A stretch of DNA of 64,000 nt from Planctomycetota bacterium (lineage in GTDB: Bacteria; Planctomycetota; UBA8108; UBA1146; JAJFFE01). The first letter of the stretch is position 1, and each line of letters opens with the position of its first letter. Shown piece after piece: positions 3,258-28,470 of this stretch. Under the pieces are notes generated by a model. It was not told the DNA's origin and did no database searches. It was given only the letters and a program-made list of their open reading frames with translations. The DNA is taken from contig JBFWWP010000020.1 in assembly GCA_050246115.1 (NCBI GenBank), positions 28,793 through 92,792 of the forward strand, written 5' to 3'. The position numbers and the translations under genes are program-made.

Positions 3258-3267
3258 GCGAACACCC

Positions 3268-10645: not shown

Positions 10646-10715
10646 GGCGATCGCTCCTTCAGTGTCGCTGGAGTCTGCGCGCGGCTGACCCGGCGTGAGC
10701 CGAGGGACGCCCGGC

Positions 10716-11929: not shown

Positions 11930-11959
11930 GTCCGCTTCGGTCCGCTTCGGTCCGCTTCA
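11930..11959. repeat. Perfect tandem direct repeat, gtccgcttcg x3, in the thrS-asd intergenic region
   Basis: Read directly: g tccgcttcg g tccgcttcg g tccgcttca g. Confidence 0.8.
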
Positions 11960-11983
11960 GACTGCCATCTCCCGACAGCTCAC

Positions 11984-12011
11984 GCCGTCACGGAGTCAAG
12001 CCGTCACGGAG
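11984..12011. repeat. Tandem direct repeat gccgtcacggag(tcaa) x2, about 25 bp downstream of the first repeat
   Basis: gccgtcacggagtcaagccgtcacggag read directly. It sits between the thrS stop and the asd start, so it could be a terminator or operator. Confidence 0.7.
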
Positions 12012-12035
12012 CATGGAATCACCCGCTGCGCGGAA

Positions 12036-14102
12036 TCACGAAGACCCGGCTGCGAACGAGGCGTCGAGGCGCCGTTCCCGCACTTCGGTGACGATGCGCT
12101 CGAAGAACTCCTCGAACGGTATCGCTCCGAGGTCCCCCACCCCTCGCTGCCGAACCGCGACGGTTCCGGCTTCCTCGTCGCGCCCTCCGACGATCAGCAT
12201 GTAGGGCAAGCGCGCATCGGCAGCCACCTTGATCTTGGCGGCCACACGGTCAGCACTCCGATCGAGCGTGGCCCGCAAGCCAGCTCCACGCAAGCGCGCG
12301 AGCAGTCGCTCGCCGTAGCCCGCGAACTGCTCGGTGATGGGGAGCACGCGTACCTGCTCCGGGGCCAACCATACCGGGAACGCGCCTTCGAAGTGTTCAA
12401 TCAAGATGCCAACGAAACGCTCGAACGAGCCGAACGGAGCGCGGTGGATCATCACCGGTCGGTGCGACCGGTTGTCGGCGCCGGTGTAGCTGAGGTCGAA
12501 GCGTTCCGGCAGGTTGTAGTCGACCTGAATGGTCCCCAACTGCCACTCTCGCCCGACCACGTCACGGGCTACGAAGTCGATCTTGGGGCCGTAGAACGCC
12601 GCTTCGCCGGCCTCCTCACTGAAAGGTACCCCCAGCCCAGCGACGGCCGTGCGGCAAGCAGCCTCGGCTCGATCCCAGAGTTCGGGCCGCCCGATGTACT
12701 TCGATCCGTCGGGGTCACGCAGCCCGACGCGGACGCGGTAGTCGCGCAAGCCCAAGGTGGTGAGCACCAACTTCACGAGTGCCAGGCACCCGACGAGTTC
12801 GGGGCCCACCTGCTCTTCGGTGCAAAACAGGTGAGCGTCGTCCTGGGTGAAGCCCCGTACGCGGGTCATGCCATGAACTTCGCCGGACTGCTCCCAGCGG
12901 TAAACGGTTCCGAACTCCGCGAGTCGAACCGGCAGGTCGCGATAACTTCGTGGTTCGGAGGCGTAGATCTTCACGTGGTGCGGGCAGTTCATCGGCTTGA
13001 GCAAGTAGCCCGTGACCTCGCCGCCCGCGAGGCGATTGGCGAGTTCGGCGCAGCTACAATTCTCGGCGGCCAGCCGTTCCATCTCTTCGTTCTCGACGAT
13101 CGGCGGATACTGACTCTCACGATAGTAAGGGTAGTGACCGCTGGTGCGGTAGAGGCCGAGCTTGCCGATGTGGGGTGTGTAGACCGAGCGGTAGTCTTGC
13201 TTGACCAGCTCGGCTCGAATGAACTCCTCGAGTTCACGACGCACCACGGCGCCGTTTGGAGTCCACAGGATCAACCCCTGCCCCACCGCATCGTCGATGT
13301 GAAACAGATTCAGCTTGCGCCCCAGGACTCGATGGTCGCGCTTACGCGCCTCCTCGATCAGGTTGAGGTGCTCGGCGAGCTGCTTGGGGGTGGCAAAGGC
13401 GGTGCCGTAGACGCGAGTCAGTGAATCCGAAGCGGCGTCCCCGTGCCAATAGGACGATGCGAGGCTCATTACCTTGAACGCACCAATGCGCCCGGTGCTC
13501 GGTACGTGAGGGCCACGGCACAGGTCTTCCCAGTGGCGACCGGGCTCGCCGGTCGCATACCACGACAGCTCCTCCGAGCCCGCGGCACGAGCCCGCTCGG
13601 CGTTGTCGATCTTGTACTTGCTGCCTTCGCTCCGGAGCTTCTTCAGCCCTTCGTCGTACGGCAACTCGTAGCGCGTGAATGCGCGATCCTCCGCGATGAT
13701 CTGCTGCATCTCGCGCTCGATGGCCTCGAAGTCCCGCGAACTCAGCGGGCGTGCCTCGGGCAGAGCGATGTCGTAGTAGAAGCCGTTCTCGACCGGCGGC
13801 CCATAAACGAGCTGCGCCTCGGGCACCAGCCGTTGAATCGCCTCCGCCATGACGTGGGCGCAGCTGTGCCGCATGAGGTAGAGCGCGTCTTCGTGCGCGG
13901 GCTGCTCCCCGCGGGGAGCGGTTATGATCTGCAGACTCGCATCCTGCGAGATCACGCGCTGAAGGTCGACGAGTTCGCCGTCGACACGCCCGCCCAGGGC
14001 CGCCTTGGCAAGGCCCGCACCGATGTCCTGCGCGACTTCGGCGACCCGAATCGGTCCTGGATACTCCCGAACGCTGCCGTCGGGCAAAGTGATACGCGGC
14101 AT
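12036..14102 (-). CDS. thrS: Threonine--tRNA ligase
   Basis: 688 aa with an N-terminal TGS domain (MPRITLPDGSVREY), a second additional domain (HSCAHVMAEA), class II synthetase motifs and a C-terminal anticodon-binding domain. Confidence 0.9.
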   Translation of the reverse strand: MPRITLPDGSVREYPGPIRVAEVAQDIGAGLAKAALGGRVDGELVDLQRVISQDASLQIITAPRGEQPAHEDALYLMRHSCAHVMAEAIQRLVPEAQLVYGPPVENGFYYDIALPEARPLSSRDFEAIEREMQQIIAEDRAFTRYELPYDEGLKKLRSEGSKYKIDNAERARAAGSEELSWYATGEPGRHWEDLCRGPHVPSTGRIGAFKVMSLASSYWHGDAASDSLTRVYGTAFATPKQLAEHLNLIEEARKRDHRVLGRKLNLFHIDDAVGQGLILWTPNGAVVRRELEEFIRAELVKQDYRSVYTPHIGKLGLYRTSGHYPYYRESQYPPIVENEEMERLAAENCSCAELANRLAGGEVTGYLLKPMNCPHHVKIYASEPRSYRDLPVRLAEFGTVYRWEQSGEVHGMTRVRGFTQDDAHLFCTEEQVGPELVGCLALVKLVLTTLGLRDYRVRVGLRDPDGSKYIGRPELWDRAEAACRTAVAGLGVPFSEEAGEAAFYGPKIDFVARDVVGREWQLGTIQVDYNLPERFDLSYTGADNRSHRPVMIHRAPFGSFERFVGILIEHFEGAFPVWLAPEQVRVLPITEQFAGYGERLLARLRGAGLRATLDRSADRVAAKIKVAADARLPYMLIVGGRDEEAGTVAVRQRGVGDLGAIPFEEFFERIVTEVRERRLDASFAAGSS

Positions 14103-14557: not shown

Positions 14558-15874
14558 ATGTCCGAGGCTCGTGTCGCGCCCCCGTCCCCGCCCCCCGGAG
14601 ACTACGATCCACGGCTGTGCATTCTGCACGCCGACATGGACGCCTTCTTCGCCGCGGTCGAAGTGCTCGACGATCCGACCCTGCGCGGCGTACCGTTGAT
14701 CATTGGTCATCCCGGCGCGCGCGGGGTCGTGTCCACGGCCTCCTACGAGGCGCGTCGCTTCGGGGTCCATTCGGCCATGCCGTCGGTCGAGGCCATGCGG
14801 CGTTGCCCGCACGCCGTGTGGCGGGCGCCGCGAGTTTCCCGCTACGCTGAGTTGTCGGCTCAGATCCGCAGTATCTTCCACCGTTACACACCCTTGGTAG
14901 AACCCTTGTCGCTCGACGAGGCCTTCCTCGATGTCGCGGGATCGCTCCGGCTCTTCGGGGGTGCGATCGCGATCGCGCAGGGCCTCCAACAAACGATCGC
15001 GCACGACACCGGTGGCTTGACGGTGTCGGTCGGGGTGGCGACCAACAAGTTCCTCGCCAAGCTCGCGAGCGACATGCAGAAACCCGCGGGCCTCACGGTC
15101 ATCGACCCCGACCGAGCGGCCGAGCAAATCGCCCCACTCCCGGTGCGCCGACTGTGGGGAGTGGGCGAGAAGAGCGCGGCGCGGCTCCACGAGATCGGCG
15201 TCCGAACCATCGGCGAGGTCGCGCGAGTGGGCGAATCCTACCTGCGACGCTCACTCGGCGAAGCCGCCGGCCGGCATCTCTTCGCGCTCGCCCACGGCCG
15301 CGACTCGCGCACTGTCGATACCGAGCACGAAGCCAAGTCGATCTCCACCGAGTCGACGTTCGCTGTGGACCTTCACGACGCCGGGGAGATTCGCAACTTC
15401 CTGTTCGAGGCCGCGGACACCGTGGCCGAGGCGCTACGGAAGGCACGCCTCCTCGCGCGCACGGTACAGCTCAAGGTCCGGACCGGCTCGTTTCGTACCC
15501 TGACTCGGGCGCACACGCTGCCGCAACCCACCAATCTGCCGCAGATCCTGCACCAAGCCGCGCTCGAACTCCTCGAAAGTCGGGTCGACCTCGCGGGCGA
15601 GGGCGTGCGGCTGCTCGGATTGGGCGCCAAGGGCCTCATCGAGGACGAGTGCGCGGTCCAAGCCGATCTCTTCGCGAGCGAAGCGGCCGAGCTCGACCGG
15701 AAGACCGCGCAAGTGAGCGATCGCGTGAAGGCCGCACTCGGCCGCGACGCGATCACGCGGGCGCGACTGATGCGTCGCCACGCACCCGGTGAGGGAGCAG
15801 CCTCGGAGAACCGCCCGGGCCGCGACGACCCCGGCCGAGTCCGGCGACGGGACCTCGGGCACGAGGCACCGTGA
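14558..15874 (+). CDS. dinB: DNA polymerase IV (Y-family)
   Basis: ILHADMDAFFAAVE...SIDEAFLD...GVGEKSAARL (HhH) are Y-family signatures. Start placed at the internal ATG 14558; the upstream 40 codons are unconserved. Confidence 0.85.
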   Translation: MSEARVAPPSPPPGDYDPRLCILHADMDAFFAAVEVLDDPTLRGVPLIIGHPGARGVVSTASYEARRFGVHSAMPSVEAMRRCPHAVWRAPRVSRYAELSAQIRSIFHRYTPLVEPLSLDEAFLDVAGSLRLFGGAIAIAQGLQQTIAHDTGGLTVSVGVATNKFLAKLASDMQKPAGLTVIDPDRAAEQIAPLPVRRLWGVGEKSAARLHEIGVRTIGEVARVGESYLRRSLGEAAGRHLFALAHGRDSRTVDTEHEAKSISTESTFAVDLHDAGEIRNFLFEAADTVAEALRKARLLARTVQLKVRTGSFRTLTRAHTLPQPTNLPQILHQAALELLESRVDLAGEGVRLLGLGAKGLIEDECAVQADLFASEAAELDRKTAQVSDRVKAALGRDAITRARLMRRHAPGEGAASENRPGRDDPGRVRRRDLGHEAP

Positions 15875-15975
15875 AGCGTGCTTCGCGCAGCGTCGAGTGT
15901 TGCTCGTTCGGACTCTTCACCGTCGCCCACCTCCCCGCCAGAGCACGAGACCCGAGGAGCGGCGCGACGGGAGCG

Positions 15976-17340
15976 TCAGTCAGCGAGGATGCGCAGGATG
16001 TGATCGCGGATCGCGACGGCCGTCCGCGGGCTGCCGGGGCTGCCCCGTGCGGAGTCGATGAAGATCGGTCCACGATCCGGATCAGTCGGTAGGCGTCCAT
16101 GGGATCCGCGCACGATCGTCGGGTCGGTGCCAACGACGTCCATGAGATAGCGGAACCCGAGCCGCTTCTTGACGAGGTTCTTCACCACACGCAGGCCTGG
16201 GAACCGCAGGCTCGGGTCGAGGAACAACTCGGTCGGGTCGTAGCCCGGCTTGCGGTGAATGTCGACGGTATTGGCGAAGTCGGGCCGGCGGGCGTCATCC
16301 AACCAATAGTGATAGGCGAACCAGCACCCCGGTTCGCTCACGAGCACCAGTTCCCCGGAGCGCTCGTGATCGATACCGACCGGCGCCTGCTCGCGCCGAT
16401 CGAAGATATCCGCGACTCCGGGGAGCTGTTGGAGAGCGCTGCGCACCCGCACGACGTCGCGGGGATCCCGCACGTAGACATGGGCGACCTGGTGGTCGGC
16501 CACGGCGAAGGCCACGGACGCGCCTGCATCCAGCAGCTGACCATGGCTCCGTTCCTGGAGCCGCAGGAACCCGCGTTCTGCCAAGAACCGGTTGACGAAG
16601 ATCGGCGTCGTCACCGATTCGATGCCGTACTCCGAGAGGACGAGCACCCGCGCTCCGCGTGCGCGCGCCGCATCGATCAAGCGCCCCGCCTCGATGTCGA
16701 GCGCGCGCACGGCCTCGCGCGACGCCGGCGCCTCGGGCCCGAAACGCTGGTGGTCGTAATCGAGGTGCGGCAGGTAGGCGAGTACGAGCGTGGGGTCGAA
16801 GCGTTCGATGACGCGGAGCGTCGCGTCGGCGATCCAACGCGTCGACCGAATGTCCGCGCCCGGGCCCCAGAAATGAAACAACGGGAACGGTCCGAGTTCG
16901 GCTTCGAGTTCCGCATGCAGCGGTGCCGGCTCCGAGTAGAGGCCGGGCCGCTTGAGGCCGTTCGCGTGATACTCGGGTCGGGGCGTGACACTGAAGTCGA
17001 CCGCCGCATACATGTTGTACCACCAGAACATCTTTGCACAGGTGAACCGGGGGTCGCGCGCGCGCGCGGTCTCGTAGAGTTTCTCGCCCTGGATCAGGGC
17101 GTTGGACTGCCGCCAGAGAAAGACCTCGGCAAGGTCGCGGAAGTACCAGCCGTTGGCAACGATCCCGTGCTCGCGCGGCAGGCGACCGGTGAGCCAGGTC
17201 GCTTGCACCGTGCAGGTCACTGCCGGAAACACCGTTGCCAGCGCGCCAAGCTCACCCGCATCCGCGAGCGAGCGCAGATTCGGCGCGTCGACGAGATCGC
17301 AGGGACGCAGTCCTACGGCGTCGATGACGAGCAGCTTCAC
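15976..17340 (-). CDS. Alkaline-phosphatase superfamily protein (type I phosphodiesterase / nucleotide pyrophosphatase-like)
   Basis: 454 aa, has the DYDHQ motif and matches the overall AP-superfamily metalloenzyme pattern. GTG start, overlapping the dus stop as GTGA. Confidence 0.6.
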   Translation of the reverse strand: MKLLVIDAVGLRPCDLVDAPNLRSLADAGELGALATVFPAVTCTVQATWLTGRLPREHGIVANGWYFRDLAEVFLWRQSNALIQGEKLYETARARDPRFTCAKMFWWYNMYAAVDFSVTPRPEYHANGLKRPGLYSEPAPLHAELEAELGPFPLFHFWGPGADIRSTRWIADATLRVIERFDPTLVLAYLPHLDYDHQRFGPEAPASREAVRALDIEAGRLIDAARARGARVLVLSEYGIESVTTPIFVNRFLAERGFLRLQERSHGQLLDAGASVAFAVADHQVAHVYVRDPRDVVRVRSALQQLPGVADIFDRREQAPVGIDHERSGELVLVSEPGCWFAYHYWLDDARRPDFANTVDIHRKPGYDPTELFLDPSLRFPGLRVVKNLVKKRLGFRYLMDVVGTDPTIVRGSHGRLPTDPDRGPIFIDSARGSPGSPRTAVAIRDHILRILAD

Positions 17341-18530
17341 TCGGCCGCCTCGGCCGCACAGGTCTCGGCGTACTCGACGCCGCCGTCGCCGAACGGAGTC
17401 GTGTCGCCGCTGTGGGCGACGTCAGGAAAGGTCTCCGACACGATGCGCCGGAAGTCGTCGGCGTCGCGCGCGAGGGCGATCCGAGCCCGGAACGCGCGTG
17501 CTCCGCGCACTCCAGCCAGGTAGCGGCAAGCGAACTTCCGCATGCGGATCGTGCCAGCGGGGTCACCCTCGAGATCGACCACGGCAGCGTGGTGCGCGAG
17601 TAGTTGCTCACGCTGCTCGAGCAAGCTGGGGGCACGGGGTGCTGCCTCGCCACGGAGCGCCGCCGTGATCTCGCGAAACACCCATGGCCGCGTCAAAGCA
17701 GCACGCGCGACCATGACGCCCGCCGCGCCAGACAAGCGCAGTGCCCGCATTGCGCTCGGCGCGTCGACGATGTCCCCGTTGGCAATGACGGGCACGTCGA
17801 CGGCCGCCACGACTTCACCGATCAAGTCGAACCGGCTCGGCGTTCCGTAGCCTTCGCCCGCCGTGCGCCCATGCACCGTGATCGCCACTGCACCGTTGGC
17901 TGCGGCCTGGCGGGCAACCGCCGTCGCCGTTCGACAGTTCGCCGACGGACCCAATCGGATCTTCGCGGTCACCGGAATGCCGCCCGCGCCGCGCACCGTC
18001 GCGGCGACCATGCGTCCCACGGTCTCGGGATCACGCAGAAGCTTGGCCCCAGCCCCTTGCTTCCCCATGATTCGCTGCTTGGGGCAGCCGAAGTTCAAGT
18101 CGATGACGGCGACGCCGTAGTCGCGCAACCGTCGGGCACCCTCCTCGACCATGGCGGGCTCCCGATCCCACAGCTGCACCCCCAGCGGCCCGGGCTCGGT
18201 TCTCACCCCGTGCAGTCGCTCGGGCTCGGTTTGCTGTCCTTGCACCCACCCGCCCGCCGAGACCATCTCGGTGTAGATCAACCCGCAACCGCCAAAGTCG
18301 CGGACCAACCGCCGAAACACGAGGTCGGTAAAGCCTGCGATGGGCGCCGAAATCACCGGGGTAGCGAGTGCCAGCGACCCGATGTGTAACGGCGGCGACT
18401 CGCGCGTGGGGAGCACCCCGGCCTCTGCACCCGGAGGTACATCGCGCTCGACCCGAGATTCGATCACCGCACCCACCGTCTTCCACTGGCTACGCTTCTT
18501 CTCGACGCCCTGGACTCCGCCTCGCGACAA
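17337..18530 (-). CDS. dus: tRNA-dihydrouridine synthase
   Basis: SAPIAGFTDLVFRRL...LNFGCPKQRIMGKQGAGAKLL...VTAKIRLG is the Dus TIM-barrel. The true start may be an internal non-ATG codon, since about 50 N-terminal residues are unconserved. Confidence 0.75.
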   Translation of the reverse strand: MSRGGVQGVEKKRSQWKTVGAVIESRVERDVPPGAEAGVLPTRESPPLHIGSLALATPVISAPIAGFTDLVFRRLVRDFGGCGLIYTEMVSAGGWVQGQQTEPERLHGVRTEPGPLGVQLWDREPAMVEEGARRLRDYGVAVIDLNFGCPKQRIMGKQGAGAKLLRDPETVGRMVAATVRGAGGIPVTAKIRLGPSANCRTATAVARQAAANGAVAITVHGRTAGEGYGTPSRFDLIGEVVAAVDVPVIANGDIVDAPSAMRALRLSGAAGVMVARAALTRPWVFREITAALRGEAAPRAPSLLEQREQLLAHHAAVVDLEGDPAGTIRMRKFACRYLAGVRGARAFRARIALARDADDFRRIVSETFPDVAHSGDTTPFGDGGVEYAETCAAEAAE

Positions 18531-18736
18531 AGTCGGAAGCTGGCGACCCGCTCTACGGCTCGGGTACTCACTCGTCCGGTCCCATAGTAGACGCGTATCG
18601 CGAGCCGATCAACGCGGAGCGATCGACGCGGGCCGAGCCCCTGCGCCGGCCACCGCCACAGCCACAGCCTCGCCCCCAATCCGGGGGCAGGCTGCGTGAG
18701 TCCAGACTGAACCCGCCACGGCGCCCTGCACCCTCT

Positions 18737-18772
18737 CCGGGGCAGATCCTCTCGCCGGGGCAGATCCTCTCG
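18737..18772. repeat. Perfect 18-bp tandem duplication, ccggggcagatcctctcg x2
   Basis: Read directly in the roughly 800 bp non-coding stretch downstream of dus. Confidence 0.8.
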
Positions 18773-18846
18773 TGTCACCCATGTGATCGGAAAATCGGTT
18801 ACCTATGGTTCCGGAATGGACCCATGTTCACCCCACCCCCCCGCCA

Positions 18847-18862
18847 CGCCCCTCGAGGGGCG
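18847..18862. repeat. Perfect 16-bp palindrome cgcccctcgaggggcg
   Basis: Self-complementary, read directly. Possible protein-binding site or REP-like hairpin. Confidence 0.7.
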
Positions 18863-19027
18863 GGGCGCGAACCTCCTCGAGCTTGGGGGCTACATGCAAC
18901 TGGGCGATGGAACGACAATCGACTGGCCAGCGACTAGTGCTCCGGAGGAGCATGCCGTGTCCGCGATCGCGAGCCTTGGATGCGAGGGGCGTGCGCCCTG
19001 TCCATGAGATTCTTGGATGGTCCGCAG

Positions 19028-19045
19028 TGTCTGCGCGCGCAGACA
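19028..19045. repeat. Perfect 18-bp palindrome tgtctgcgcgcgcagaca
   Basis: Self-complementary, read directly, in the non-coding region upstream of the HNH gene. Confidence 0.7.
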
Positions 19046-19282
19046 GTCCGACGATGCGATGGGCGTAGCGCTCGCGAGATCGTCTTCGGTTCGCACGAAG
19101 CGAAACGACACGCGTTGACGGGTCGTCGACGATGGCACGGCGGTGTCGCCCGCGCGCGTGCGAAGTGCGCCACGTCGAGGCTCGTTGAGCGAGCCCGCGC
19201 TGCAGGTCGCGAAGCACCCTTCTCCTGTCCGATGGACCGCGGCGGGACGCGATGCACATTATTGCGCAGAACCACCTTTTCG

Positions 19283-19312
19283 TTGCATTCTGGTGTATTC
19301 TGCGTTATGCTC
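19283..19312 (+). promoter_or_regulatory. Candidate sigma70-type promoter TTGCAT-N18-TATGCT upstream of the HNH endonuclease gene
   Basis: Locally AT-richer sequence ccttttcgTTGCATtctggtgtattctgcgtTATGCTcttg, a near-consensus -35/-10 pair in otherwise GC-rich DNA. Confidence 0.35.
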
Positions 19313-19331
19313 TTGTTCCTGCCCAAGTGCT

Positions 19332-19360
19332 CGAGAGGAGTATTCCCGAGAGGAGTATTC
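19332..19360 (+). repeat. Tandem duplication cgagaggagtattc x2; each copy contains a Shine-Dalgarno-like GAGGAG
   Basis: Read directly. The second copy ends 1 nt before the proposed TTG start of the HNH gene (the spacer between GAGGAG and TTG is the 6-nt tattct). Confidence 0.7.
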
Positions 19361-19361
19361 T

Positions 19362-21092
19362 TTGTCTTACTCGAAGACCTTCCATCCGCGCCCATTCTCG
19401 GCCCACTTCGTGGGAGCTTCCGTGTTCGCTCGCGTTCGTGATCGGGGTGCTGCGACAGGGAACATCCGCGCTACGTTCTCTACGCAAGGGGGTGGCCAGG
19501 ACTTCGTCGTGGGTGAGAGTTCGGTCGCCTACGGAGCGGGCACCAAGGGGACGAGGAAGGGTCGCGAGGAGATCGCGCCCGTGGACGATCACGGCGTGAT
19601 CGAAGCAAGCACGGTGCACGAGCGGCTTCGGTCGTTGCTGGCGCTCGGGAACGAGGTGCGGCTCGAGTTTCTCGATGCGCTGCGGAGCTTGCACGATGAC
19701 CGACTGTGCTTCGAGCTCGGGTACTCGAGCTTCCACCAGTACTGCGATCGGGAGCTGGGGATCGCGAAGAGTACGGCTTATGAGTATCTGAAGGTCGGGA
19801 AGGCCTTGGCGGACTTGCCGGGGCTGCGGGGGATGTTCGCGAGTGGCGACCTGTCGTGGGATCAGGTGCGGCACGCGGCGCGGGTGGCTACGCCGGAGAC
19901 CGAGACGGCCTGGATCGAGCTGGCGTGGGAACTTCCCGTCAGCGAGTTCTTGGCCGAAGTTCGCGATGCTCTTCGCAACGGGCGAGCGGCACCGCGCGAG
20001 AAGCGAAACGGACTGCCGAATCTCGTCACCAAGCTGTCGATCGAGGTGACGCTCGAGGAGAAGGAGCGTGTGCGGACAGCGTTCGCGCTCGTGGCAGAGG
20101 CGCTTGGAGAGGAGGCGCTCGGGGAGAACGAGCCGCAGGGCGACGGCGACGCGCGCCCGACGCTGCTCCGTTGGGCGGATGCGGTTCTCGCTGGGAGGAT
20201 CCCGCTCTCAGCAGGACCGGCAGGTGACGCGGGACGGCGAACTCGACCCGCGCAGGCCATCGTCTATCACTCGTGCCGCGAGTGTCGCACCGCCTCGGTC
20301 CAGACCGAGGACGGTCTCGTGAGCGTGGAGCCCGATCGCATCGCCAGACTGTCTGCGGTCGCGGACACCGTGGACATCTCGACCGGGGCCGTCCCATCCG
20401 GGGGCAACTCAATCGAAGACACATCGACGAGAGTCATCTCAACCGGAGTCAACTCCATCGGCGACGCCTCGTCAGAGAAGGGATCGCCAACCGACAAGGA
20501 AGCCGACACCCCACTTCCCGATGGGCTTCTGGATGCGCCCAACTCGGCTGCGCTATCGCGCAAGGTGATCCTGCGCGACGGGGCACGGTGCGCGAACCCG
20601 GCTTGCGGGTCGAAACGCCGACTGCACGCGCATCACATCATCTTCCGGGCTCGCGGAGGCCGCACTGTGCTCGCGAACGAGGTCGCGGTGTGTGATCGTT
20701 GCCACGCACTGATCCACGCGGATCGGCTCGAGGTGTCGGGCACTATCGACGGTGGCCTCGAGTGGAGACCTCGGCCCTGGAGCGACGCGACGCGGCTTCG
20801 ATGCGCTCGTGAGCTCGGTGAGCGGTTGCGGTCGCTGGTGGGCGAAGTCCATGGACCGGGCCAAGTGGGCCGCGAGCCGTCCCGGTCTTCCATGCTCCGC
20901 GACCCGGTGTCCACGAACGCAGACACGCAGCGCGTCGAAGCTCTCGCGCAGGGTCTGATTCGCCTCGGTTACCGGAAGTCGGAAGCGGTCGCGAGAATCG
21001 AGCACGCACTCGCGCGGCTCGCCGAGGGGGGCTCCAGCACGGACGACGGGGAGGTCCTGCGCCTCGCCATCTGCGTGGGGTCTGGCGCATGA
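19362..21092 (+). CDS. DUF222-type HNH endonuclease (13E12-repeat-family-like), with a C-terminal RuvA-domain-III-like tail
   Basis: ELGYSSFHQYCDRELGIAKSTAYEYLKVGKAL is DUF222-like. CANPACGSKRRLHAHHIIFRARGGRTVLANEVAVCDRCHALIH is an HNH motif. The start is uncertain: the track ORF begins at 19143 but runs through the tandem repeat, so an in-frame TTG at 19362 preceded by GAGGAG is proposed. Confidence 0.6.
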   Translation: MSYSKTFHPRPFSAHFVGASVFARVRDRGAATGNIRATFSTQGGGQDFVVGESSVAYGAGTKGTRKGREEIAPVDDHGVIEASTVHERLRSLLALGNEVRLEFLDALRSLHDDRLCFELGYSSFHQYCDRELGIAKSTAYEYLKVGKALADLPGLRGMFASGDLSWDQVRHAARVATPETETAWIELAWELPVSEFLAEVRDALRNGRAAPREKRNGLPNLVTKLSIEVTLEEKERVRTAFALVAEALGEEALGENEPQGDGDARPTLLRWADAVLAGRIPLSAGPAGDAGRRTRPAQAIVYHSCRECRTASVQTEDGLVSVEPDRIARLSAVADTVDISTGAVPSGGNSIEDTSTRVISTGVNSIGDASSEKGSPTDKEADTPLPDGLLDAPNSAALSRKVILRDGARCANPACGSKRRLHAHHIIFRARGGRTVLANEVAVCDRCHALIHADRLEVSGTIDGGLEWRPRPWSDATRLRCARELGERLRSLVGEVHGPGQVGREPSRSSMLRDPVSTNADTQRVEALAQGLIRLGYRKSEAVARIEHALARLAEGGSSTDDGEVLRLAICVGSGA

Positions 21093-21191
21093 GACCGACA
21101 GCCCGGCTTCAAGTACATGCTCTACGTGCCGATCAACCCGGTCGCCGCCGGGCTCGTTCGGCGCGCCAACGATTGGCCCGAAAGCAAAGTG
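21093..21191 (+). pseudogene. C-terminal remnant of an IS200-like / REP-associated tyrosine transposase (COG1943 family)
   Basis: The frame opens right after the HNH stop: DRQPGFKYMLYVPINPVAAGLVRRANDWPES resembles the conserved transposase C-terminus (Y-I-x-x-NPV-x-x-G-x-V ... DWP-x-S). No N-terminal part was found. Confidence 0.35.
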
Positions 21192-21530
21192 CTACCCCAC
21201 GAGATCGGCAACGCGTCGGGAAGGTCAGCCGACCGGACCTCTTCTTCGACTCGAACGGAGAGTGCCGGAAGCGGCGGAACTCCAGACGCCACTCCCCGCA
21301 TCCAAGGGATGTCGGCACCAATACCGTGATCCCGCAGTCGCGGTTCGCCTATCCCAAGGGCGGCGAACCCCGACCCTGCATGAAACCCGCGACTCGCAAC
21401 CTCGAATCGAGCAAGGCGCTGCCACAGGTGGCAGAGAACGGCTGTGGCACGGACGGCGTGAATCCCGCGCCTACCGATCTCGCGGGGCGAAGGGCATGAA
21501 CTGACGGCGAAGAGCGTCAGCTACAAGCCC

Positions 21531-23183
21531 TCAAGGGCAGAATGACGTCCGGCACGGAAGGTCCTCGCCGAGTGGAGCGGCGTCGCACTCGGGGAACGGC
21601 GGTTGGCCCGGGGGGCTTCCCATGAAGAACAGGTACTGCAGCAGACACACGGCGTCGGTCATGCTGACCGCGCCGTCGACGTCGAAGTCGTTCTGCGCCG
21701 CGCAAGGCGAGGTCTCCCCGCTGTACAGGTACTCGAGAATCGCCATGGCGTCGGCCATGTCCACCAGACCGCTCCGGTTCGCGTCGCCGCGCAGGTAGTG
21801 TCGCCGCGGGAGGTTCCCGGTGTGATAGAAACCTGCCTTATGGGCATCGTGGCCGATCATCCCCCACTCCACTCGTGGCACACCGGGGCCGGGGTTCTCG
21901 ACATCCCAAGCGTGCAGATTCCCCTGGTGACCGACGATGACCTCTAAGTCGTTGTCCCCATCGAGGTCCGCAATCGCGAGGGTACGCGGGGGGAATTGGG
22001 ACCATGACGGAAACACTTTGGGCCAACCGGGGAGTTCGTTCATGGACAGGTCGAGGAGATGGATTTGCTCCAGGTTGCCAGCGACGTTTGTACTCCAGGC
22101 GGCGATCTCGGCGAGGCCATCACCGTTGAAGTCAGCGACCGCGACGGCCATATAGAACGCGTACTCGTCTGTGGACGATGTCTGTGCCATGATGCCCACG
22201 CCCAGCTTCCACACCGTGATCTCGAACCCAGCCGAAACGACCTCGAGGCTACCGTCCGAGTCCACGTCGGCTATCGCCAACGGTACATTGGGCGACGCAT
22301 CTGCGAAATAGGAACCGGCAAATGCGGTCCCGTCGCGATTCATGACGAAGACGTGCGCGAAGTTTCCGACGATTTCGGAAGTCAGGTCTCCGTCCAAGTC
22401 CGCAATAGCAGGATTCGCAGCGATCTCCGGGCCCCCCAACCCCGGCGGAAACGCCGGCCACCCGGGTCGCGTGGTCCCATCGCCGTTCAACACAAACACC
22501 GGACCGGGAACCCAGGTCCCTTGATATCCCGAGAAGCTCACGACGATCTCATTCGTACCATCGAACTCTAAGTCACCGACCGCGACGCCCACGATTCCGT
22601 AGATCGGCGAGAGTTCCTCGAACACTCGCGGAAAGCCTGGGTGGTACTGACCATCGCCGCCGTAAACGAACAAGATTCCGTGGAGTTGAGAGCCGTCGCC
22701 AACGAGAATCTCCAAGTCGCCGTCGTTGTCGATGTCACCCAGACAAAGCTGACGGACGGCAGACCCGGGCGCGTCTACCTCCACGGGCCAGCCTGGCTTG
22801 AGCTGGCCATCACAGGTCACCGCGTAGACCGTCTTGTCCGTCGACCGGCGCCCCTCGAACACCACGTCGAGTTCGCCGTCACCGTCGATGTCGCCCACCA
22901 GGGGGGGAAGGTATGCTCCCCCTATCTCCTGCGGCGACGTGGGAAGAACGAACGGCCAGCCGGGCAGGACGTTACCTTGTCCATCGACCGCGACGATGTT
23001 GCCACCCCTCGAGACCACGATGTCGGGGAGTCCGTTGCCCGAGAGATCGGCAACCAACAGCTTGTTGAAGGGCCCGGAGGTGGTCGCTAGCGGGAATCCC
23101 GTCTGGGGATCCGACGCAAGGAGGCCGTGCACGGAGAGGCTGGCCGCTGAGACCGCGGCCAGCAGAGTCGCTCGAACGCTCAT
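21531..23183 (-). CDS. Secreted FG-GAP/VCBS-repeat beta-propeller protein with a C-terminal tandem dockerin-like module
   Basis: Signal peptide MSVRATLLAAVSAASLSVHG. Many GDxDGDGxxD/ADxDGD repeats (FG-GAP-like). The C-terminus RGDANRSGLVDMADAMAILEYLYSG...NDFDVDGAVSMTDAVCLLQYLFFMG is two dockerin type-I-like calcium loops plus helices, followed by a Cys-rich tail ending FCP. Confidence 0.7.
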   Translation of the reverse strand: MSVRATLLAAVSAASLSVHGLLASDPQTGFPLATTSGPFNKLLVADLSGNGLPDIVVSRGGNIVAVDGQGNVLPGWPFVLPTSPQEIGGAYLPPLVGDIDGDGELDVVFEGRRSTDKTVYAVTCDGQLKPGWPVEVDAPGSAVRQLCLGDIDNDGDLEILVGDGSQLHGILFVYGGDGQYHPGFPRVFEELSPIYGIVGVAVGDLEFDGTNEIVVSFSGYQGTWVPGPVFVLNGDGTTRPGWPAFPPGLGGPEIAANPAIADLDGDLTSEIVGNFAHVFVMNRDGTAFAGSYFADASPNVPLAIADVDSDGSLEVVSAGFEITVWKLGVGIMAQTSSTDEYAFYMAVAVADFNGDGLAEIAAWSTNVAGNLEQIHLLDLSMNELPGWPKVFPSWSQFPPRTLAIADLDGDNDLEVIVGHQGNLHAWDVENPGPGVPRVEWGMIGHDAHKAGFYHTGNLPRRHYLRGDANRSGLVDMADAMAILEYLYSGETSPCAAQNDFDVDGAVSMTDAVCLLQYLFFMGSPPGQPPFPECDAAPLGEDLPCRTSFCP

Positions 23184-24022
23184 GGGCACCCCGCCCCGGC
23201 GGCCACACAGTCGAGCGCGTCCGCGGTTGGATCGAATCCACAAATCGTCGGTCCAGGGGCTGGAGGCGGTGAGCCCGGCGGAGAACCGAACAGAAAACCG
23301 AGCAGGTACACCGAGTCCGCGATGTTGATGTCGCCAAGGTCGTTCGTGTCGGCAGCGTCGCGACACAGGAACGTGCATGGCGGAGCCGGTGGGACGGGAG
23401 GAAACAACACGCAGAGAATGAACACCACGTCCGCAACGTTGACGGCTGCGTCCAGATTCGCATCGCCTCTCTTGAAGTCACCGTCAAGCCGCTCGTCCGC
23501 GCCGCGGTCTACAACGCCCGATTGGACCCGCGGCTCTCGGTCGACGTCCAAGTCGAAAGGCGCAAACACTGCCCAGCCGGGGGCCGGATTCTGGCCGGTG
23601 TTCGCAGCGGTCGAGCTTGCCCCGAGGTGTGGGTTGTCGTCAGGAGGCACAGGATAGAAGATGCTCGCGGTTGGGGGGTTCGGATTGTTCGTGGCCACCC
23701 CACCGAACAGGTCGAGGCTAAGGGGACACCCTCCGGGAAATTCGTCCTTGGCGTGCGAGTACTGAAGAGGTGTCGTCACTGGACCCGTCCCGGTGCAGCA
23801 GGCCAGCCACTCCGTGAACGAAAGTGCAAACGGGCTGAGATTGTTCGACACTACGTTGTTGGTGGCGCGCCACTGCACATAGCCGGACGCCTCAGAGTGA
23901 AACGCGCCCACTATGTGACTGCGCGTATGTGTGTGACTGCGCGATTCGATCGCCTTCGGCTCTGTGAGCTTAGCGACCTCAAAGCCGACTTCGCAAGCTC
24001 CGTCTCTTGGAATCCGTTTCAT
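23180..24022 (-). CDS. Hypothetical protein with the same C-terminal tandem dockerin-like module
   Basis: 280 aa. C-terminus KRGDANLDAAVNVADVVFILCVLF...CRDAADTNDLGDINIADSVYLLGFLFGSPPGSPPPAPGPTICGFDPTADALDCVAAGAGCP. Overlaps the FG-GAP gene start by 4 nt (ATGA). No obvious signal peptide from the annotated start, so the start is uncertain. Confidence 0.5.
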   Translation of the reverse strand: MKRIPRDGACEVGFEVAKLTEPKAIESRSHTHTRSHIVGAFHSEASGYVQWRATNNVVSNNLSPFALSFTEWLACCTGTGPVTTPLQYSHAKDEFPGGCPLSLDLFGGVATNNPNPPTASIFYPVPPDDNPHLGASSTAANTGQNPAPGWAVFAPFDLDVDREPRVQSGVVDRGADERLDGDFKRGDANLDAAVNVADVVFILCVLFPPVPPAPPCTFLCRDAADTNDLGDINIADSVYLLGFLFGSPPGSPPPAPGPTICGFDPTADALDCVAAGAGCP

Positions 24023-24448
24023 GCGCCGGAAGTGGATCCACGACCACCGCTTGGGTCGGAAGGCGACAAAGGCCCCCCGGCCCGAGAGTCATCTCGACGA
24101 CCTAACCTACAGTAGCGGCCACGGCCCGCACCCTCGCAAGCCGACTCGAGTTGGAGCGACACTCAACAAGCTCACCCCGTTGGACGGGCGCGTTGCACGT
24201 CCACATCGCCCATGAGACGCACTGGATGTTTGCACGGACGGACTTCTCCGAGCGGATCCAACTCGGTATCAGCAGCGAGGCGATCGAGCGCCTTCGGCGG
24301 GTCGTCGCGAGCCCGGGGACCGAACGCTAAGGCGCCAGCGAGGTTCGAGCCGAGGAATGCCACGGCCCGATCGGGCACTCGCGGAGAGTTTTCCGGATCA
24401 CCCGCTTGTTCGGACCCAATGTCGACGAGGCCGAGATCCCGGTCCCCG

Positions 24449-24498
24449 ATCAGCCCGGTCTCCAATCAGCCCGGTCTCCCCGATTAGCCCGTCTCTCC
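24449..24498. repeat. Degenerate tandem repeat atcagcccggtctcc x2, plus a third diverged unit
   Basis: Read directly. It lies immediately 3' of the stop of the SEC-C-motif gene. Confidence 0.6.
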
Positions 24499-24499
24499 G

Positions 24500-25396
24500 T
24501 CAGCTCGCAGCCTGGCAGCACTTCTTGAACTTCTTGCCGCTGCCACACGAGCAGGGGTCGTTGCGACCGGGTGCGCGGCCGGGCTTCGCGGCAACGCGCA
24601 TACCGTTCGCTGACGCCGAGGGCTGCGCGGCAACCGGGCCGCTATAGTGCCTTTGCCGCGACGCACGATAGATGCGGCGAATCACTTCGTGACGACGCGC
24701 TGCCTCCTCGAAGAACTCCGGGACCTGCGCCTCGACCGCAGCGACGACTTGGTTGGCCTCCCGCGAAATCGGATCGTGTTGTGTGTCGAACCAACGGCGT
24801 GCCTCATAGTCGGCGCACAGGCTCAACATCACGTCGCCAGTGGCGGTGTCGACGAGTCCGACCCTCACCTCGGTACAAGCGCACCCGATCAAACCGCAAT
24901 AGTGCTCGATTACGATCAGGGACTTGCTTTCGAAGTCTACCGACGCCGCCATCGCGAACGGAAACACCGAGTAGTAGTCGATCGTCTCGCGCGTCTGTTC
25001 CATCTGCTCGAACGGAAAGCGAATGAACGTCTGGTCCGGGTCGACCTCCGCAATTGCGACGCGTTTCGCCCCCAGAAACCGAGACCGCAACGAGTTCCAC
25101 TGATCGGCACTGAGAGCTCCAGCAAACCACTCCCCAAACTCCGCTCGCCGCGCCGCGTGCTTCTCATCCGCCTCGCGGGCCACGTAAGACATCTCGAAGG
25201 GATCCACCTGAATCCCGATCCCCGACGCCGTCCGCAACCGTTCGCTCGCCGCAGATGATGCCGACTGCACGAGTATGCTTATCGTCGTGCACTCACAGAT
25301 CGCGCTCGCACACGCGCTCAATTCGCACAGATACTCCTCGGGGCCGTCGTCGGTCGAGATCACGAACGGCACCTTCGGGCGTGCACTCGAGTCCAA
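24500..25396 (-). CDS. SEC-C-motif (zinc-binding) domain protein, YecA-like
   Basis: C-terminus NDPCSCGSGKKFKKCCQ is a SecA-C-like metal-binding motif. Confidence 0.6.
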   Translation of the reverse strand: MDSSARPKVPFVISTDDGPEEYLCELSACASAICECTTISILVQSASSAASERLRTASGIGIQVDPFEMSYVAREADEKHAARRAEFGEWFAGALSADQWNSLRSRFLGAKRVAIAEVDPDQTFIRFPFEQMEQTRETIDYYSVFPFAMAASVDFESKSLIVIEHYCGLIGCACTEVRVGLVDTATGDVMLSLCADYEARRWFDTQHDPISREANQVVAAVEAQVPEFFEEAARRHEVIRRIYRASRQRHYSGPVAAQPSASANGMRVAAKPGRAPGRNDPCSCGSGKKFKKCCQAAS

Positions 25397-25772
25397 GAGT
25401 CTCCCTCGATTCGGTCAAATTGGAGGCCTCACCCAGAGGACGCTGTCGGTGGGCGCGGCGCCCATGACATCGTCTTCGTTCCTGCGTTGCCGATCCGGAC
25501 GCCGCCCGTCGTGCAGGTGAGGCGTGGTCTCGATTCGACCCGCGGCGACTGGATCGGTTATAAAGGATCCAACCTTCGCGGCCCATACCGGAAGGCGTCC
25601 GACATCCGCTCGTGGCGGTTCGTATCCCGTCGACGGAAGCCTCTGCGTAGAATCCCGGACCGCAGATCCCCGCCTGGCCGCGAAGCTGCCCAGCCGGCTT
25701 CCTGGGACGTTCACGGGCGGATCGGCGGCCAGCGCGGACCCGGACTCGGACTTGGACTTCGGAAGGGGTGAG

Positions 25773-26027
25773 ATGGCGGAGCCTATCGATCCGTTGATTC
25801 TTGATCTCCTCGAGTGGATCGGACCGTCGCGGCGCGCCTACTCCGAGGTCATGGAGGCATGGCGCACGTCGTGTCCGCGGCTATCGGTGTGGGAGCAAGC
25901 CAGTGCGCGTGGGTTTCTCGAGCGACACCACGAGCCGCCCGCGGCGCCCACGGTGTCGGTCACCGAGGTCGGGCGAGCGTTCGTTCGAGACCATCGCCCA
26001 CCCGGGTTCGATGGCGAGGAAGGGTAG
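25773..26027 (+). CDS. Small hypothetical protein (84 aa)
   Basis: Good RBS GGAAGGGGTGAG directly upstream of ATG 25773. Has no Arg-rich composition. Product MAEPIDPLILDLLEWIGPSRRAY... Confidence 0.35.
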   Translation: MAEPIDPLILDLLEWIGPSRRAYSEVMEAWRTSCPRLSVWEQASARGFLERHHEPPAAPTVSVTEVGRAFVRDHRPPGFDGEEG

Positions 26028-26091
26028 GCAGCTCATGAGAGTTCGAACCTTCGAGGGATGAGGCCAACAGGCCAACCGAAGGAGCAGCAGT

Positions 26092-26283
26092 ATGACGTCG
26101 ACCTCCGCGATGGTGAACCGCGCGCTTCGGGTGAGCGTCACTCCGGTGCTTCGCGAGGCCGGGTTTACGAAGATCGACGCCCGCAACGGCTGGCGCTGGC
26201 TCGACAAAGTCGTTTGGGTGTTCAACGTTCGTAGCGTGAGGGGGCTGCCTTGGCCAGCTGCACGCTCCCAACGGCCGAGCTGA
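26092..26283 (+). CDS. Short ORF resembling the N-terminus of a DUF4304-like protein (possible gene fragment)
   Basis: AAGGAG sits 8 nt upstream of the ATG. VTPVLREAGFTKIDARNGWRWLDKVVWVFNVRS resembles the start of that family, but the ORF stops after 63 aa. Confidence 0.25.
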   Translation: MTSTSAMVNRALRVSVTPVLREAGFTKIDARNGWRWLDKVVWVFNVRSVRGLPWPAARSQRPS

Positions 26284-26385
26284 CGTCGAGTCTCGCGCAA
26301 AGAGCGTCGGCTTCGTCAGCACAACAGCGTGGCTACCGAAGCGGTGTGTCCGCTGATCGTCGCTCTCAGAAGCCTCGGGAGGACT

Positions 26386-27804
26386 TTAGTCGCTGGGGTC
26401 GTCGAGCAGGTCTTGGAAGTCGATACCGCGTTCGCGTTCGAGGCGCTTCTCCATCGCGAAGGCGTAGCGTTCGGTGACGTACCTTCGGTAGAGGTCTTCG
26501 TAGCAGCTGACTTCGAGAACGGGGCGAAGGTTGTGAATGCGGTCGAGGAGGAAGCGCTGTTCGGCGGACCCCAGGTAGGACAGGGCGTGGGTGAAGAGGT
26601 TGCCAAGAGCGCAGAGAAGGAGCGCCGGGTTGTTGATCAGATGAACTCGAGAGACGAGGTCCTCGAACCCAACGCGAAGGGCGTCGTCGTCCACGAGCAG
26701 AATGTAGGTCTCGAGCAGAAGCAGTCGAGAGCGTGCCTCCATGCAGTTTCGCTCTTGCGCTTCGTCGAGTAGCTTGCGGATGAAGATCAGCGCCGAGCGG
26801 TGATCGCCTTCGTAGAGGCAGAAGTGAACCTGCGCGATCTTGGCGTCGAGCGCGCCGGGGTAGTGCGGGGGGTCACAGGCTTCGAAGGAGGTCTGCGCCT
26901 GTTGGATCAGTCCGAGGCCGGCATCGAAGCGCCCCTCCTGCACGTGCAGCTCACCCTCGTACAGTTGCGCGTAGGCGGACTGGATGGCGAACCGGTCGCG
27001 CTCGCGGCTCAGAAACGGCCTCGCCTCGGTGAGTTCCTTCCACGCAAGCTGGGTTTGCTTGAGATCAATCGCACACTTGCAAGCGTTCAGGTGCGATCGC
27101 ACCAAGAAGTGAGTGTCTGCGATCGCCTCGGCGCGCGCACGCGAGTCGGGATTCGCGTTGACCTTCAGTGCTTCCTGGTACTGCCCGCTCGCCCAGTAGA
27201 GGTTCGCGACCTGCAGCGTAAGGCTGAGTTCCAGGGAGAAGCCCGAAGCGGCACTTCGGCACAGACCCTGATGGAGGTAGCGTGCAGCCTGCTCGAAGTG
27301 GCCTAGTCGTCGAAACACAAGACCTAGGTTTCTCAACGTGAGACACTGAACGAACTGCCGCAATGTCGGCGACCCGGGAGCATGCTCTGAGGCCTCCATG
27401 CATTCTGCAAGCAAAGGAACTGCTTCCGTACCGCGACCCGCAAGCGCCAATGAGTAGCCGATGGCGGAACGGAGGAGAACCACTCCCAAGTCTGGTTCAC
27501 CGTCGAGCCAACGCTCCAGCGCGCGCAGGTCGTTCAGCCGTGGATCGCCGCTCCAACGGAGGTAGGAAAACAGAAGCAGCGCATAGAGGTCCGGCACTCG
27601 GGATCGAAAGTCGCGCAGTGCCGCGCCTACTGCATCGACGGAGTCGTGCCTGAGAACAATGTCGATCTGCGTGAACAATTCAGAGGCAGAGTCATCCCGG
27701 TGGGAGCCGTGGCGGTGGAGTGCATCTCGGGCGCACTCCAGACTCGCAGACGCGAAGAAAGCCTGGAACAACCAAGCTCGATCGGGGTCCGCTGGATTGA
27801 CCAT
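26386..27804 (-). CDS. Cytoplasmic tetratricopeptide-repeat (TPR) protein, hypothetical regulator
   Basis: 472 aa with repeated TPR-like helical pairs (for example LGLVFRRLGHFEQAARYLHQGL, ANLYWASGQYQEALKV) and no signal peptide. Confidence 0.55.
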   Translation of the reverse strand: MVNPADPDRAWLFQAFFASASLECARDALHRHGSHRDDSASELFTQIDIVLRHDSVDAVGAALRDFRSRVPDLYALLLFSYLRWSGDPRLNDLRALERWLDGEPDLGVVLLRSAIGYSLALAGRGTEAVPLLAECMEASEHAPGSPTLRQFVQCLTLRNLGLVFRRLGHFEQAARYLHQGLCRSAASGFSLELSLTLQVANLYWASGQYQEALKVNANPDSRARAEAIADTHFLVRSHLNACKCAIDLKQTQLAWKELTEARPFLSRERDRFAIQSAYAQLYEGELHVQEGRFDAGLGLIQQAQTSFEACDPPHYPGALDAKIAQVHFCLYEGDHRSALIFIRKLLDEAQERNCMEARSRLLLLETYILLVDDDALRVGFEDLVSRVHLINNPALLLCALGNLFTHALSYLGSAEQRFLLDRIHNLRPVLEVSCYEDLYRRYVTERYAFAMEKRLERERGIDFQDLLDDPSD

Positions 27805-27825
27805 GCTTGCCTCCTTCCCTCCGCG

Positions 27826-28470
27826 CTACTCGACTGCCACGTTGGAAAGCACACCCGCGGTGCAGTCGGCGCCGATGACGACCTTCGGAGTTCCTTCGCC
27901 TCCGAAGAACAGCTCCAGTCGATAATGGGTGACTCGTTGCGTTCCCGATGAGCGCACTACTCGAAGCCCCGTGAGCTTGCGCATAGACATCTCCGCCGCA
28001 CACGGTTGAGCGATCGCGGCTGGCGGGTGCGACAGAACGGTTGCAATCATCTCGAGCCCCACCGAGTCAGGCACCACGTGCCCCTTCACGTGAACCGCGG
28101 CAGAAGCGTTGGCTCGGACATAAGTGGTCGCTGCGAGTCCGGAGCCGCTGGGTTGAAAGTGGACCCACGACCAAGTGAGAGCGCCGACCGACAAACTACC
28201 GAAGTAGATCTTGTCGCCCGCGGGAGACTCGAAGAAGAGATTGAACGAAAGCTGGTCTACAACTCCACCAGCGGCCAGTAGCGGGTCAATCTGTGTACGA
28301 AGCTCGGGGCTGGACAAGGAGGCACTCAGAGCATCGAGATCGGCAAAATCCCGAGCAAGCACCGCCCCGACGACATCCCCCCCATCGGTCTGTGCCCAGC
28401 CCACGTCGCGCAGCACGCCCAGTGCCGCGAGCGTGAGTAACACGGCCACCAGTTTCCGAGAAGTCGACAT
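27826..28470 (-). CDS. Secreted hypothetical protein
   Basis: Internal ATG gives MSTSRKLVAVLLTLAALGVLRDVGWAQ, a signal peptide. Lies immediately upstream of the TPR gene on the same strand. Confidence 0.45.
   Translation of the reverse strand: MSTSRKLVAVLLTLAALGVLRDVGWAQTDGGDVVGAVLARDFADLDALSASLSSPELRTQIDPLLAAGGVVDQLSFNLFFESPAGDKIYFGSLSVGALTWSWVHFQPSGSGLAATTYVRANASAAVHVKGHVVPDSVGLEMIATVLSHPPAAIAQPCAAEMSMRKLTGLRVVRSSGTQRVTHYRLELFFGGEGTPKVVIGADCTAGVLSNVAVE

Follow-up and report, generated by a model that had tools for sequence, protein, structure and literature searches.

The window analysed here, a stretch of 64,000 nucleotides of DNA from a Planctomycetota bacterium, carries at positions 18812-21092 (plus strand) what is probably one copy of a multi-copy and apparently selfish HNH repeat of the DUF222/REP13E12-like kind. 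The repeat consists of a leader and an intact HNH endonuclease gene. It abuts a dead fragment of a Y1 transposase gene and lies at the dus-proximal edge of a segment of about 10.4 kb. The repeat occurs in several copies in the genome, and its protein has a recognizable domain make-up with purifying selection acting on the two main domains. The adjoining Y1 sequence is a pseudogene that has intact counterparts elsewhere in the genome, and the whole segment is absent from the related genomes that we compared.

Multiple copies of the repeat in one genome

Region 17001-24000 of the window is 100% identical to contig JBFWPE010000036.1 of assembly GCA_050250155.1, a Planctomycetota metagenome-assembled genome (MAG). 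The product of the HNH gene, P0001, is recorded from a second assembly of the same organism too. The paralogous loci used for comparison are contigs or regions of the same MAG (GCA_050250155.1): L002 (contig JBFWPE010000028.1, 16.3 kb), L003, L096 (on contig JBFWPE010000007.1) and L097. The 2.3-kb repeat occurs in this MAG seven times or more, counting fragments, and is spread over five or more contigs; five copies are situated at contig ends. By blastn, window 18812-21092 recurs at 86-90% identity at L002 9458-11752, at L002 15377-16299 (copy extent 15244-16299, a contig end), at L003 1-1220 (copy extent 1-1270, a contig start) and at L097 5456-7153 (copy extent 5323-7170, a contig end). Internal fragments of the repeat lie at L002 1798-2289 and 6652-7004, and the cluster listing adds more partial HNH products. 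P0002, a paralogue 88% identical to P0001, is encoded on another contig of the same MAG. The neighbourhoods of the copies differ and contain T2SSE/HEAT genes, a Tc-toxin gene or dus. A search for close further copies in the JGI metagenomes returned none, only distant relatives.

The ends of the window copy follow from boundary alignments. Four paralogous copies are alike for at least 120 bp to the left of the window boundary at 18812, and three of the copies are alike for about 680 bp or more leftward, including the 5' part of a PT-HINT toxin gene on the opposite strand. On the right side, L002b and L003 share 48 of 50 nt beyond the stop codon, while the window copy diverges directly after TGA 21092. 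Since the flanks shared by the paralogs extend further, the window copy is cut short on either side, and the position of the left end is not fixed within the family. Among the copies compared, we could not detect terminal inverted repeats, a target-site duplication or fixed ends for the HNH repeat, which sets it apart from a generic insertion sequence. No PT-HINT remnant was found beside the window copy.

Locus L002 is itself a rearranged array in which orphan PT-HINT polymorphic-toxin cassettes occupy the minus strand; it also includes a Tox-HNH-EHHH fragment and small genes that are candidates for immunity functions. The array is interleaved with three HNH repeat copies or fragments, one internal fragment and two Y1 pieces, and many of its segments are duplicated at 85-99% identity.

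A predicted HNH nuclease of the DUF222 superfamily

The HNH gene is intact and spans 19362-21092 on the plus strand. It starts with TTG and encodes 576 amino acids (aa), a 100% match to the NCBI product 'HNH endonuclease'. A first-pass annotation, made from the letters of the window without database searches, had put the protein at 577-649 aa. Upstream of TTG 19362 the paralogs differ by indels of 1-2 nt, whereas from 19362 onward they show none. Because of these indels, the 649-aa open reading frame (ORF) from GTG 19143 is not conserved, and the NCBI-annotated product of 576 aa is the supported reading.

The HNH nuclease domain occupies residues 401-470 (20562-20771). Pfam PF01844 matches it with E 1.4e-6 and 28.8 bits against a cut-off of 21.4, and the same model matches 43 of 44 relatives. 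Residues C410, C415, H425, N439, C444 and H448 are invariant in the family and all found in P0001, as are H424, C447 and H452, which are invariant or nearly so; the HNH domain retains its catalytic His/Asn/His and all four zinc-binding Cys. A ParB-like helix-turn-helix (HTH) domain, homologous to DUF222, spans residues 80-250 (19599-20111), and residues 1-79 are predicted to be disordered. The Pfam DUF222 model (PF02720) gives no match to P0001 even at E ≤ 1; it directly matches 9 of 44 family members with a best E of 1.2e-9. Homology to DUF222 is seen by phmmer, which connects P0001 with DUF222-bearing proteins at E 1.6e-14 to 5.5e-7, and by hhalign of the family profile A7 against the DUF222+HNH protein P0014 (99.65%, E 3.9e-25, 315 columns, residues 83-459). 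The description of the gene product as a DUF222+HNH protein therefore stands for HNH by Pfam and for DUF222 at the level of profiles, but not by the Pfam DUF222 model itself. We classify P0001 as a predicted nuclease, an HNH endonuclease of the DUF222 superfamily.

The AF2 model of the full-length protein is poor, with residues 80-215 modelled well (pLDDT 76-93). In Foldseek, the N-terminal part of this model matches the helix-turn-helix of ParB and Noc at probabilities of 0.96-0.99. Comparison of the window copy with P0002 gives a dN/dS of 0.42 overall; the HTH domain stands at 0.14, the HNH domain at 0.11 and the low-complexity linker at 0.85. This pattern shows purifying selection on the HTH and HNH domains and a linker that evolves near neutrality. 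With 0.14 and 0.11 in these domains, the copies therefore encode constrained proteins. A check of GC and codon usage, proposed along with the idea of an accessory gene, did not set the HNH gene apart: its GC and GC3 are like those of the host genes.

The family comprises 393 cluster representatives (50% identity) at E ≤ 1e-30 and 4,695 at E ≤ 1e-10. Distant relatives are 45-66% identical and come from Anaerolineae-type and other bins. They are lone genes among housekeeping genes, often on short contigs or at contig ends, as is the case for most of P0006-P0011, and one metagenome holds several copies of distant family members. The branch shows that the DUF222/HNH kind extends to Planctomycetota and to Chloroflexota-type metagenome bins. 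Phage matches were not found, with PHROG matches confined to the HNH motif, and plasmid matches are weak and cover the HNH motif only. A defence system was considered and rejected, as PADLOC matched DpdF over the HNH motif alone. IscB and the HEARO system were likewise rejected: NCBIfam IscB gives E 3.2e-7 and 29.8 bits against a cut-off of 175, over the HNH motif only, and there is neither a RuvC domain nor a HEARO/omega RNA (Rfam, E ≤ 1), P0001 having an HTH domain instead.

The C-terminal end of P0001 (20907-21077) is a three-helix domain that resembles RuvA domain III, the RuvB-binding domain of the Holliday-junction protein RuvA. On the tail alone, Pfam RuvA_C (PF07499) gives E 0.0037 and 18.1 bits, below the 24-bit cut-off; 3 of 44 relatives are matched at E ≤ 0.01, the best at E 2.9e-6. 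Alignment to a RuvA domain III chain by hhalign has a probability of 79%. A tail-only AF2 model of the last ~60 residues shows three helices at pLDDT 84.4, and in a Foldseek search of the PDB its top 11 matches are all RuvA, with TM 0.57-0.70 and rmsd 1.7-2.6 Å. For a domain this short, the Foldseek E values stay weak, at 0.6-2. The resemblance of the tail to RuvA domain III is well supported. RuvA domains I and II are absent from P0001, where the domain is attached to an HNH nuclease instead. The tail follows the sequence pattern LxxLGY/F..E(A) and is kept in about 40 of the best 150 family members. It had been described as an unusual addition; the likeness to RuvA holds, but the tail is a conserved family trait and not a local addition.

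A transposase pseudogene downstream of the repeat

Directly after the HNH stop codon (TGA 21090-21092), the frame of the HNH ORF encodes the peptide KYMLYVPINPVAAGLVRRANDWPES at 21111-21185, and the frame downstream of the stop encodes DRQPGFKYMLYVPINPVAAGLVRRANDWPES. The similarity to COG1943 (IS200-like/RAYT) transposases that had been recognized in this frame is confirmed. Window 21093-21209 matches NCBIfam REP_Tyr_transpos (NF047646) with E 4.2e-4 at profile positions 123-144 of 146, and 21105-21412 (plus strand) aligns to the Y1 paralogue at L002 3922-4319 with 83-86% DNA identity (tblastn E 9.5e-18). The remnant spans the region of the catalytic-Tyr motif (KYMLYVPINPVAAGLV..DWP) and part of the C-terminal extension. 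Relative to the 1.53-kb unit described below, it lacks the HUH-encoding 5' part, the left end and the 3' end. Its lesions are three 1-nt deletions, one 1-nt insertion and one 94-bp deletion. It had been called a C-terminal remnant; it is a piece of a transposase gene, but an internal and longer one that carries frameshifts and the 94-bp deletion. Positions 21105-21412 are a dead internal fragment of an IS200-like/RAYT Y1 transposase gene, a pseudogene.

The Y1 family consists of ~298-aa proteins annotated in the sources as RayT or as transposase. The L002 paralogue is divided between two ORFs and carries the HUH motif (NHLHIIV) and the Tyr motif; joined, with the frameshift repaired, it matches NF047646 with E 1e-14 at positions 11-144. 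An intact transposase was sought elsewhere in the genome and found twice: two intact genes of 303 aa lie in 98.4% identical units of 1.53 kb at L096 1753-3274 and 5729-7260, 4 kb apart and beside another FG-GAP gene. A gene for a group II intron-type reverse transcriptase (RVT_1 + GIIM) is located near these units at L096 10901-11533. The intact Y1 units together with this reverse transcriptase gene suggest an active mobile-element load in the genome. We found no clear hairpins at the ends of the intact units. The palindrome GCCCCTCGAGGGGC at the left end is not repeated in the window; it was the sole one checked for a REP array, and no wider REP search was made. With IS200/IS605 Y1 (HUH) and RAYT transposases (COG1943; PF01797, NF047646) the remnant shares the catalytic-Tyr region, and its paralogues carry the HUH motif. 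In contrast to these, the Y1 family described here has ~300 aa with a C-terminal extension of ~150 aa, and it forms multi-copy, insertion-sequence-like units of 1.5 kb rather than a single RAYT gene with REP arrays.

The leader of the repeat

Positions 18531-19361 hold no annotated gene (831 bp, or 894 bp counted from the PGAP dus start at 18467). The earlier impression of about 800 bp after dus without convincing coding sequence is thus borne out by annotation and by Pfam, Rfam and tRNA searches. Between 18.5 and 19.4 kb, five ORFs have no Pfam match, and neither strand shows similarity to the HNH family at protein level. For non-coding RNA, there were no matches in the whole window at the Rfam gathering threshold, in 18300-21700 at Rfam E ≤ 1, or in an ARAGORN tRNA/tmRNA scan. 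The dus-proximal part, 18531-18811, is unique intergenic DNA upstream of dus and outside the HNH repeat, and it matched none of the paralogous loci; an 18-bp tandem duplication (CTCTCCGGGGCAGATCCT / CTCGCCGGGGCAGATCCT) lies within it at 18733-18768. The leader of the repeat covers the following 550 bp (18812-19361, plus strand) and is non-coding, as paralog indels break every frame and Pfam gives no matches. In distant lineages we observe no nucleotide similarity to the leader.

An AT-richer block had been noted and is confirmed at 19240-19400 (plus strand), with a GC content of 52% compared to 65% window-wide. The block had been credited with a promoter of its own in the form TTGCAT-N18-TATGCT. 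Both hexamers are present, at 19283 and 19306-19311, but the spacer has 17 nt rather than 18. The motif is kept in three paralogs and agrees with 7 of 12 sigma-70 consensus positions, which is unremarkable, and a scan for sigma-70 promoters and intrinsic terminators reported none, this site included; a promoter of the block's own is thus not supported. The duplicated 14-mer with a Shine-Dalgarno sequence, CGAGAGGAGTATTC, does occur at 19332 and 19347. It is, however, part of a 15-bp tandem duplication (19332-19361) that carries GAGGAG and abuts the TTG start. This duplication is private to the window copy, as two paralogs have a single unit in the three-paralog alignment.

Palindromes in the leader are located at 18842-18867 and, with the sequence TGTCTGCGCGCGCAGACA, at 19028-19045. 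An inverted repeat of 120 nt connects the leader with the gene: by blastn, the leader arm at 19020-19136 pairs with a coding arm at 20256-20375 (plus strand; 74-79% to the reverse complement), which lies in a CxxC/zinc-ribbon-like coding segment. The inverted repeat is centred on the palindrome TGTCTGCG-N2-CGCAGACA (19028), of which degenerate copies are found at 20350 and 20908. All paralogs have this inverted repeat and distant homologues lack it, and we reject it as a family-wide feature.

The segment between dus and comM

The repeat and the Y1 fragment form the dus-proximal part of a lineage-specific segment that reaches from dus to comM (18531-28938, about 10.4 kb). A Dus-based scan of species-representative genomes yielded seven Planctomycetota MAGs with Dus 65-70% identical. 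In all seven, the orthologue of comM (a YifB-type Mg chelatase gene, window 28939-30468) lies ~50-300 bp upstream of dus and is co-directional with it. Beyond comM follows the orthologue of 30618-33026, and the phosphodiesterase side is conserved too. Within 10 kb of dus, none of the seven relatives shows an HNH, Y1 or FG-GAP match. Because comM adjoins dus in the relatives, about 10.4 kb (18.5-28.9 kb) are lineage-specific, the FG-GAP gene included. The first-pass annotation had proposed an accessory islet bounded by the FG-GAP gene. An islet absent from the seven relatives is indeed what we find, but it extends to comM, and the order proposed for checking, with dus directly followed by the FG-GAP gene, is not observed in them. 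A search for att-like direct repeats flanking the segment gave chance 8-10-mers only. With 10.4 kb between the two genes, dus is here parted from any upstream signals that it may share with comM in the relatives.

On the phosphodiesterase side, the segment is preceded by a phosphodiesterase gene (15976-17340, minus strand) and by dus (minus strand; 17337-18467 with the PGAP start, or to 18530). Downstream of the Y1 fragment, the segment holds an FG-GAP/dockerin gene (21531-23378, minus strand), a SEC-C-motif gene (24500-25396), a TPR gene (26386-27804) and hypothetical genes. Contig JBFWPE010000036.1 ends at window position ~26886, inside the TPR gene, though the window continues. This assembly break within the segment may reflect another repeat or strain variation.

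Elsewhere, the window contains a MITE-like intergenic repeat of 187-189 bp, with copies 93-97% identical at 47864-48049 (minus), 50370-50556 (plus) and 51263-51451 (plus) and a further one at L097 548-736. Its ends are formed by long terminal inverted repeats (TAGGAGTCGCCCAAGAAT...ATTCTTGGGCGACTCCTA), with TTA/TA flanking them.

Discussion

Repeats of the DUF222/HNH (REP13E12) type have been on record since 1999, and to our knowledge no mechanism of their spread has been defined. The REP13E12 elements of Mycobacterium tuberculosis and Actinobacteria (PF02720 + PF01844) are likewise multi-copy per genome and consist of a single ORF. They share with the window repeat an N-terminal helical domain of the DNA-binding type, homologous to DUF222, and a C-terminal HNH domain. 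Their copies recombine and become truncated, as observed here, again with no transposition mechanism defined. In mycobacteria, REP13E12 repeats are among the loci that most often undergo gene conversion, without a defined function (PMC13061034; PMC10589994), and DUF222 is described as an unknown accessory domain of HNH enzymes (PMC3592412). In contrast to REP13E12, the host here is a MAG of the Planctomycetota, P0001 is not recognized by the Pfam DUF222 model, and the protein has a long low-complexity linker and the RuvA domain III-like tail. A role in prophage attachment is not evident for the window repeat, which has no phage matches. It is a divergent member of the REP13E12/DUF222-HNH superfamily in another phylum.

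Free-standing HNH homing genes of the phage I-HmuI type spread by double-strand-break repair. P0001 is similar in that it combines HNH with a separate DNA-binding domain in a single gene and has no transposase. Ends that vary with co-converted flanks and the presence of multiple copies are likewise common to both. Unlike such homing genes, P0001 shows no intron or intein context (no Rfam intron match), and no empty-site allele was seen. From this anatomy and analogy, and more speculatively, the HNH unit could spread as a free-standing homing endonuclease gene, with a DNA site chosen by the HTH domain and cleaved by the HNH domain. Through recombinational repair or gene conversion templated by a filled copy, the gene and variable lengths of flank would then reach the new place, and the RuvA domain III-like tail may dock on RuvB. 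In its furthest form, this proposal would make the ParB-HTH/HNH/RuvA-III family a distinct class of autonomous mobile gene, in which the nuclease cuts a chosen site, the tail recruits host RuvB, and branch migration extends gene conversion with variable flanks. We regard this as a long shot. If it were true, the flanks carried along would be the PT-HINT fragments, and the element would drive the shuffling of polymorphic-toxin cassettes.

Several points weigh against a selfish repeat as the best description of 18812-21092. The unit has no fixed ends, as its left end lies at the window boundary, 120 bp further out or at least 680 bp further out, depending on the copy. Because fixed ends, terminal inverted repeats and a target-site duplication are missing, the copies could be plain segmental duplications instead of a self-moving element. 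No pair of empty and filled alleles was found for the HNH unit alone. Nuclease activity, target site and contact with RuvB are predictions, and the full-length AF2 model has a mean pLDDT of only 52. The seven relatives are distant (Dus 65-70%), so that the difference of 10.4 kb says little on age or number of insertion steps and gives no firm value for either.

Three other explanations of the locus were weighed against a selfish repeat. The one that follows from the first-pass annotation concerns the junction between HNH and Y1: the HNH cassette would have entered an IS200-like transposase gene at a specific site and pushed out the 5' two-thirds of that gene, in the manner of homing. Y1 homology does begin only 13 nt past the HNH stop, in the same orientation and frame, and HNH and Y1 sequences are close to each other twice in L002, where the order HNH-then-Y1 recurs in the same orientation at 1798-4485 and 9338-13661 with a gap of 1.1-1.3 kb. 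However, at the junction the HNH repeat too is incomplete and lacks the 50 nt past the stop that are common to L002b and L003, and tblastn finds no 5' Y1 piece to the left of the HNH unit or elsewhere in the window. The second Y1 fragment in L002 is truncated at another point (L002 13068, corresponding to 4234), no HNH lies within 6 kb of either intact Y1 unit, and distant HNH family members have no Y1 neighbour. Because both repeats are truncated, the 5' Y1 piece is missing, the Y1 truncations differ and intact Y1 occurs without HNH, site-specific insertion is disfavoured and we consider it unlikely. The simplest history of the junction would be that two mobile elements were near neighbours and that a deletion or an illegitimate recombination took out the stretch separating them.

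Somewhat less plausible still is a domesticated host factor, with the HNH protein acting as a RuvB-linked recombination or repair nuclease or as a regulator and with its copies arising by passive segmental duplication of toxin-cassette arrays. Purifying selection on the domains, host-like base composition and GC3, conservation of the RuvA domain III-like tail and the PT-HINT gene fragments in left flanks common to four copies are all compatible with such a role. Hard to reconcile with it are the number of copies and fragments (at least seven), their spread over five or more contigs with differing neighbourhoods, and the lack of the gene at the syntenic locus of seven relatives; in other phyla, too, family members occur in several copies and interrupt contigs. 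The PT-HINT context also raises the possibility of a polymorphic-toxin system in which the HNH gene would supply either a nuclease toxin module or a shuffler of PT-HINT cassettes. HNH units stand head-to-head with a PT-HINT gene fragment in L002 and L097, the L003 unit lies upstream of an SpvB/TcdB toxin gene, and L002 contains the Tox-HNH-EHHH fragment. Yet the HNH gene has a start of its own and runs on the opposite strand, its N-terminal domain is an HTH and not a pretoxin or secretion domain, neither an immunity-like partner nor a PT-HINT remnant is present in the window, distant homologues stand alone among housekeeping genes, and PADLOC matches no system beyond the HNH motif. We judge a part in a toxin system very improbable.

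We conclude that a selfish HNH repeat next to a Y1 fragment remains the preferred reading of 18812-21092, and that the locus is ordinary mobile-element debris at the edge of a 10-kb variable region and not a new system. The main value of this finding lies in annotation, and its wider point is modest. For this MAG, the HNH repeats explain several of the contig breaks. For the family, the RuvA domain III-like tail on many of its members leads to a RuvB-recruitment hypothesis, by which these genes may interplay with host recombination.

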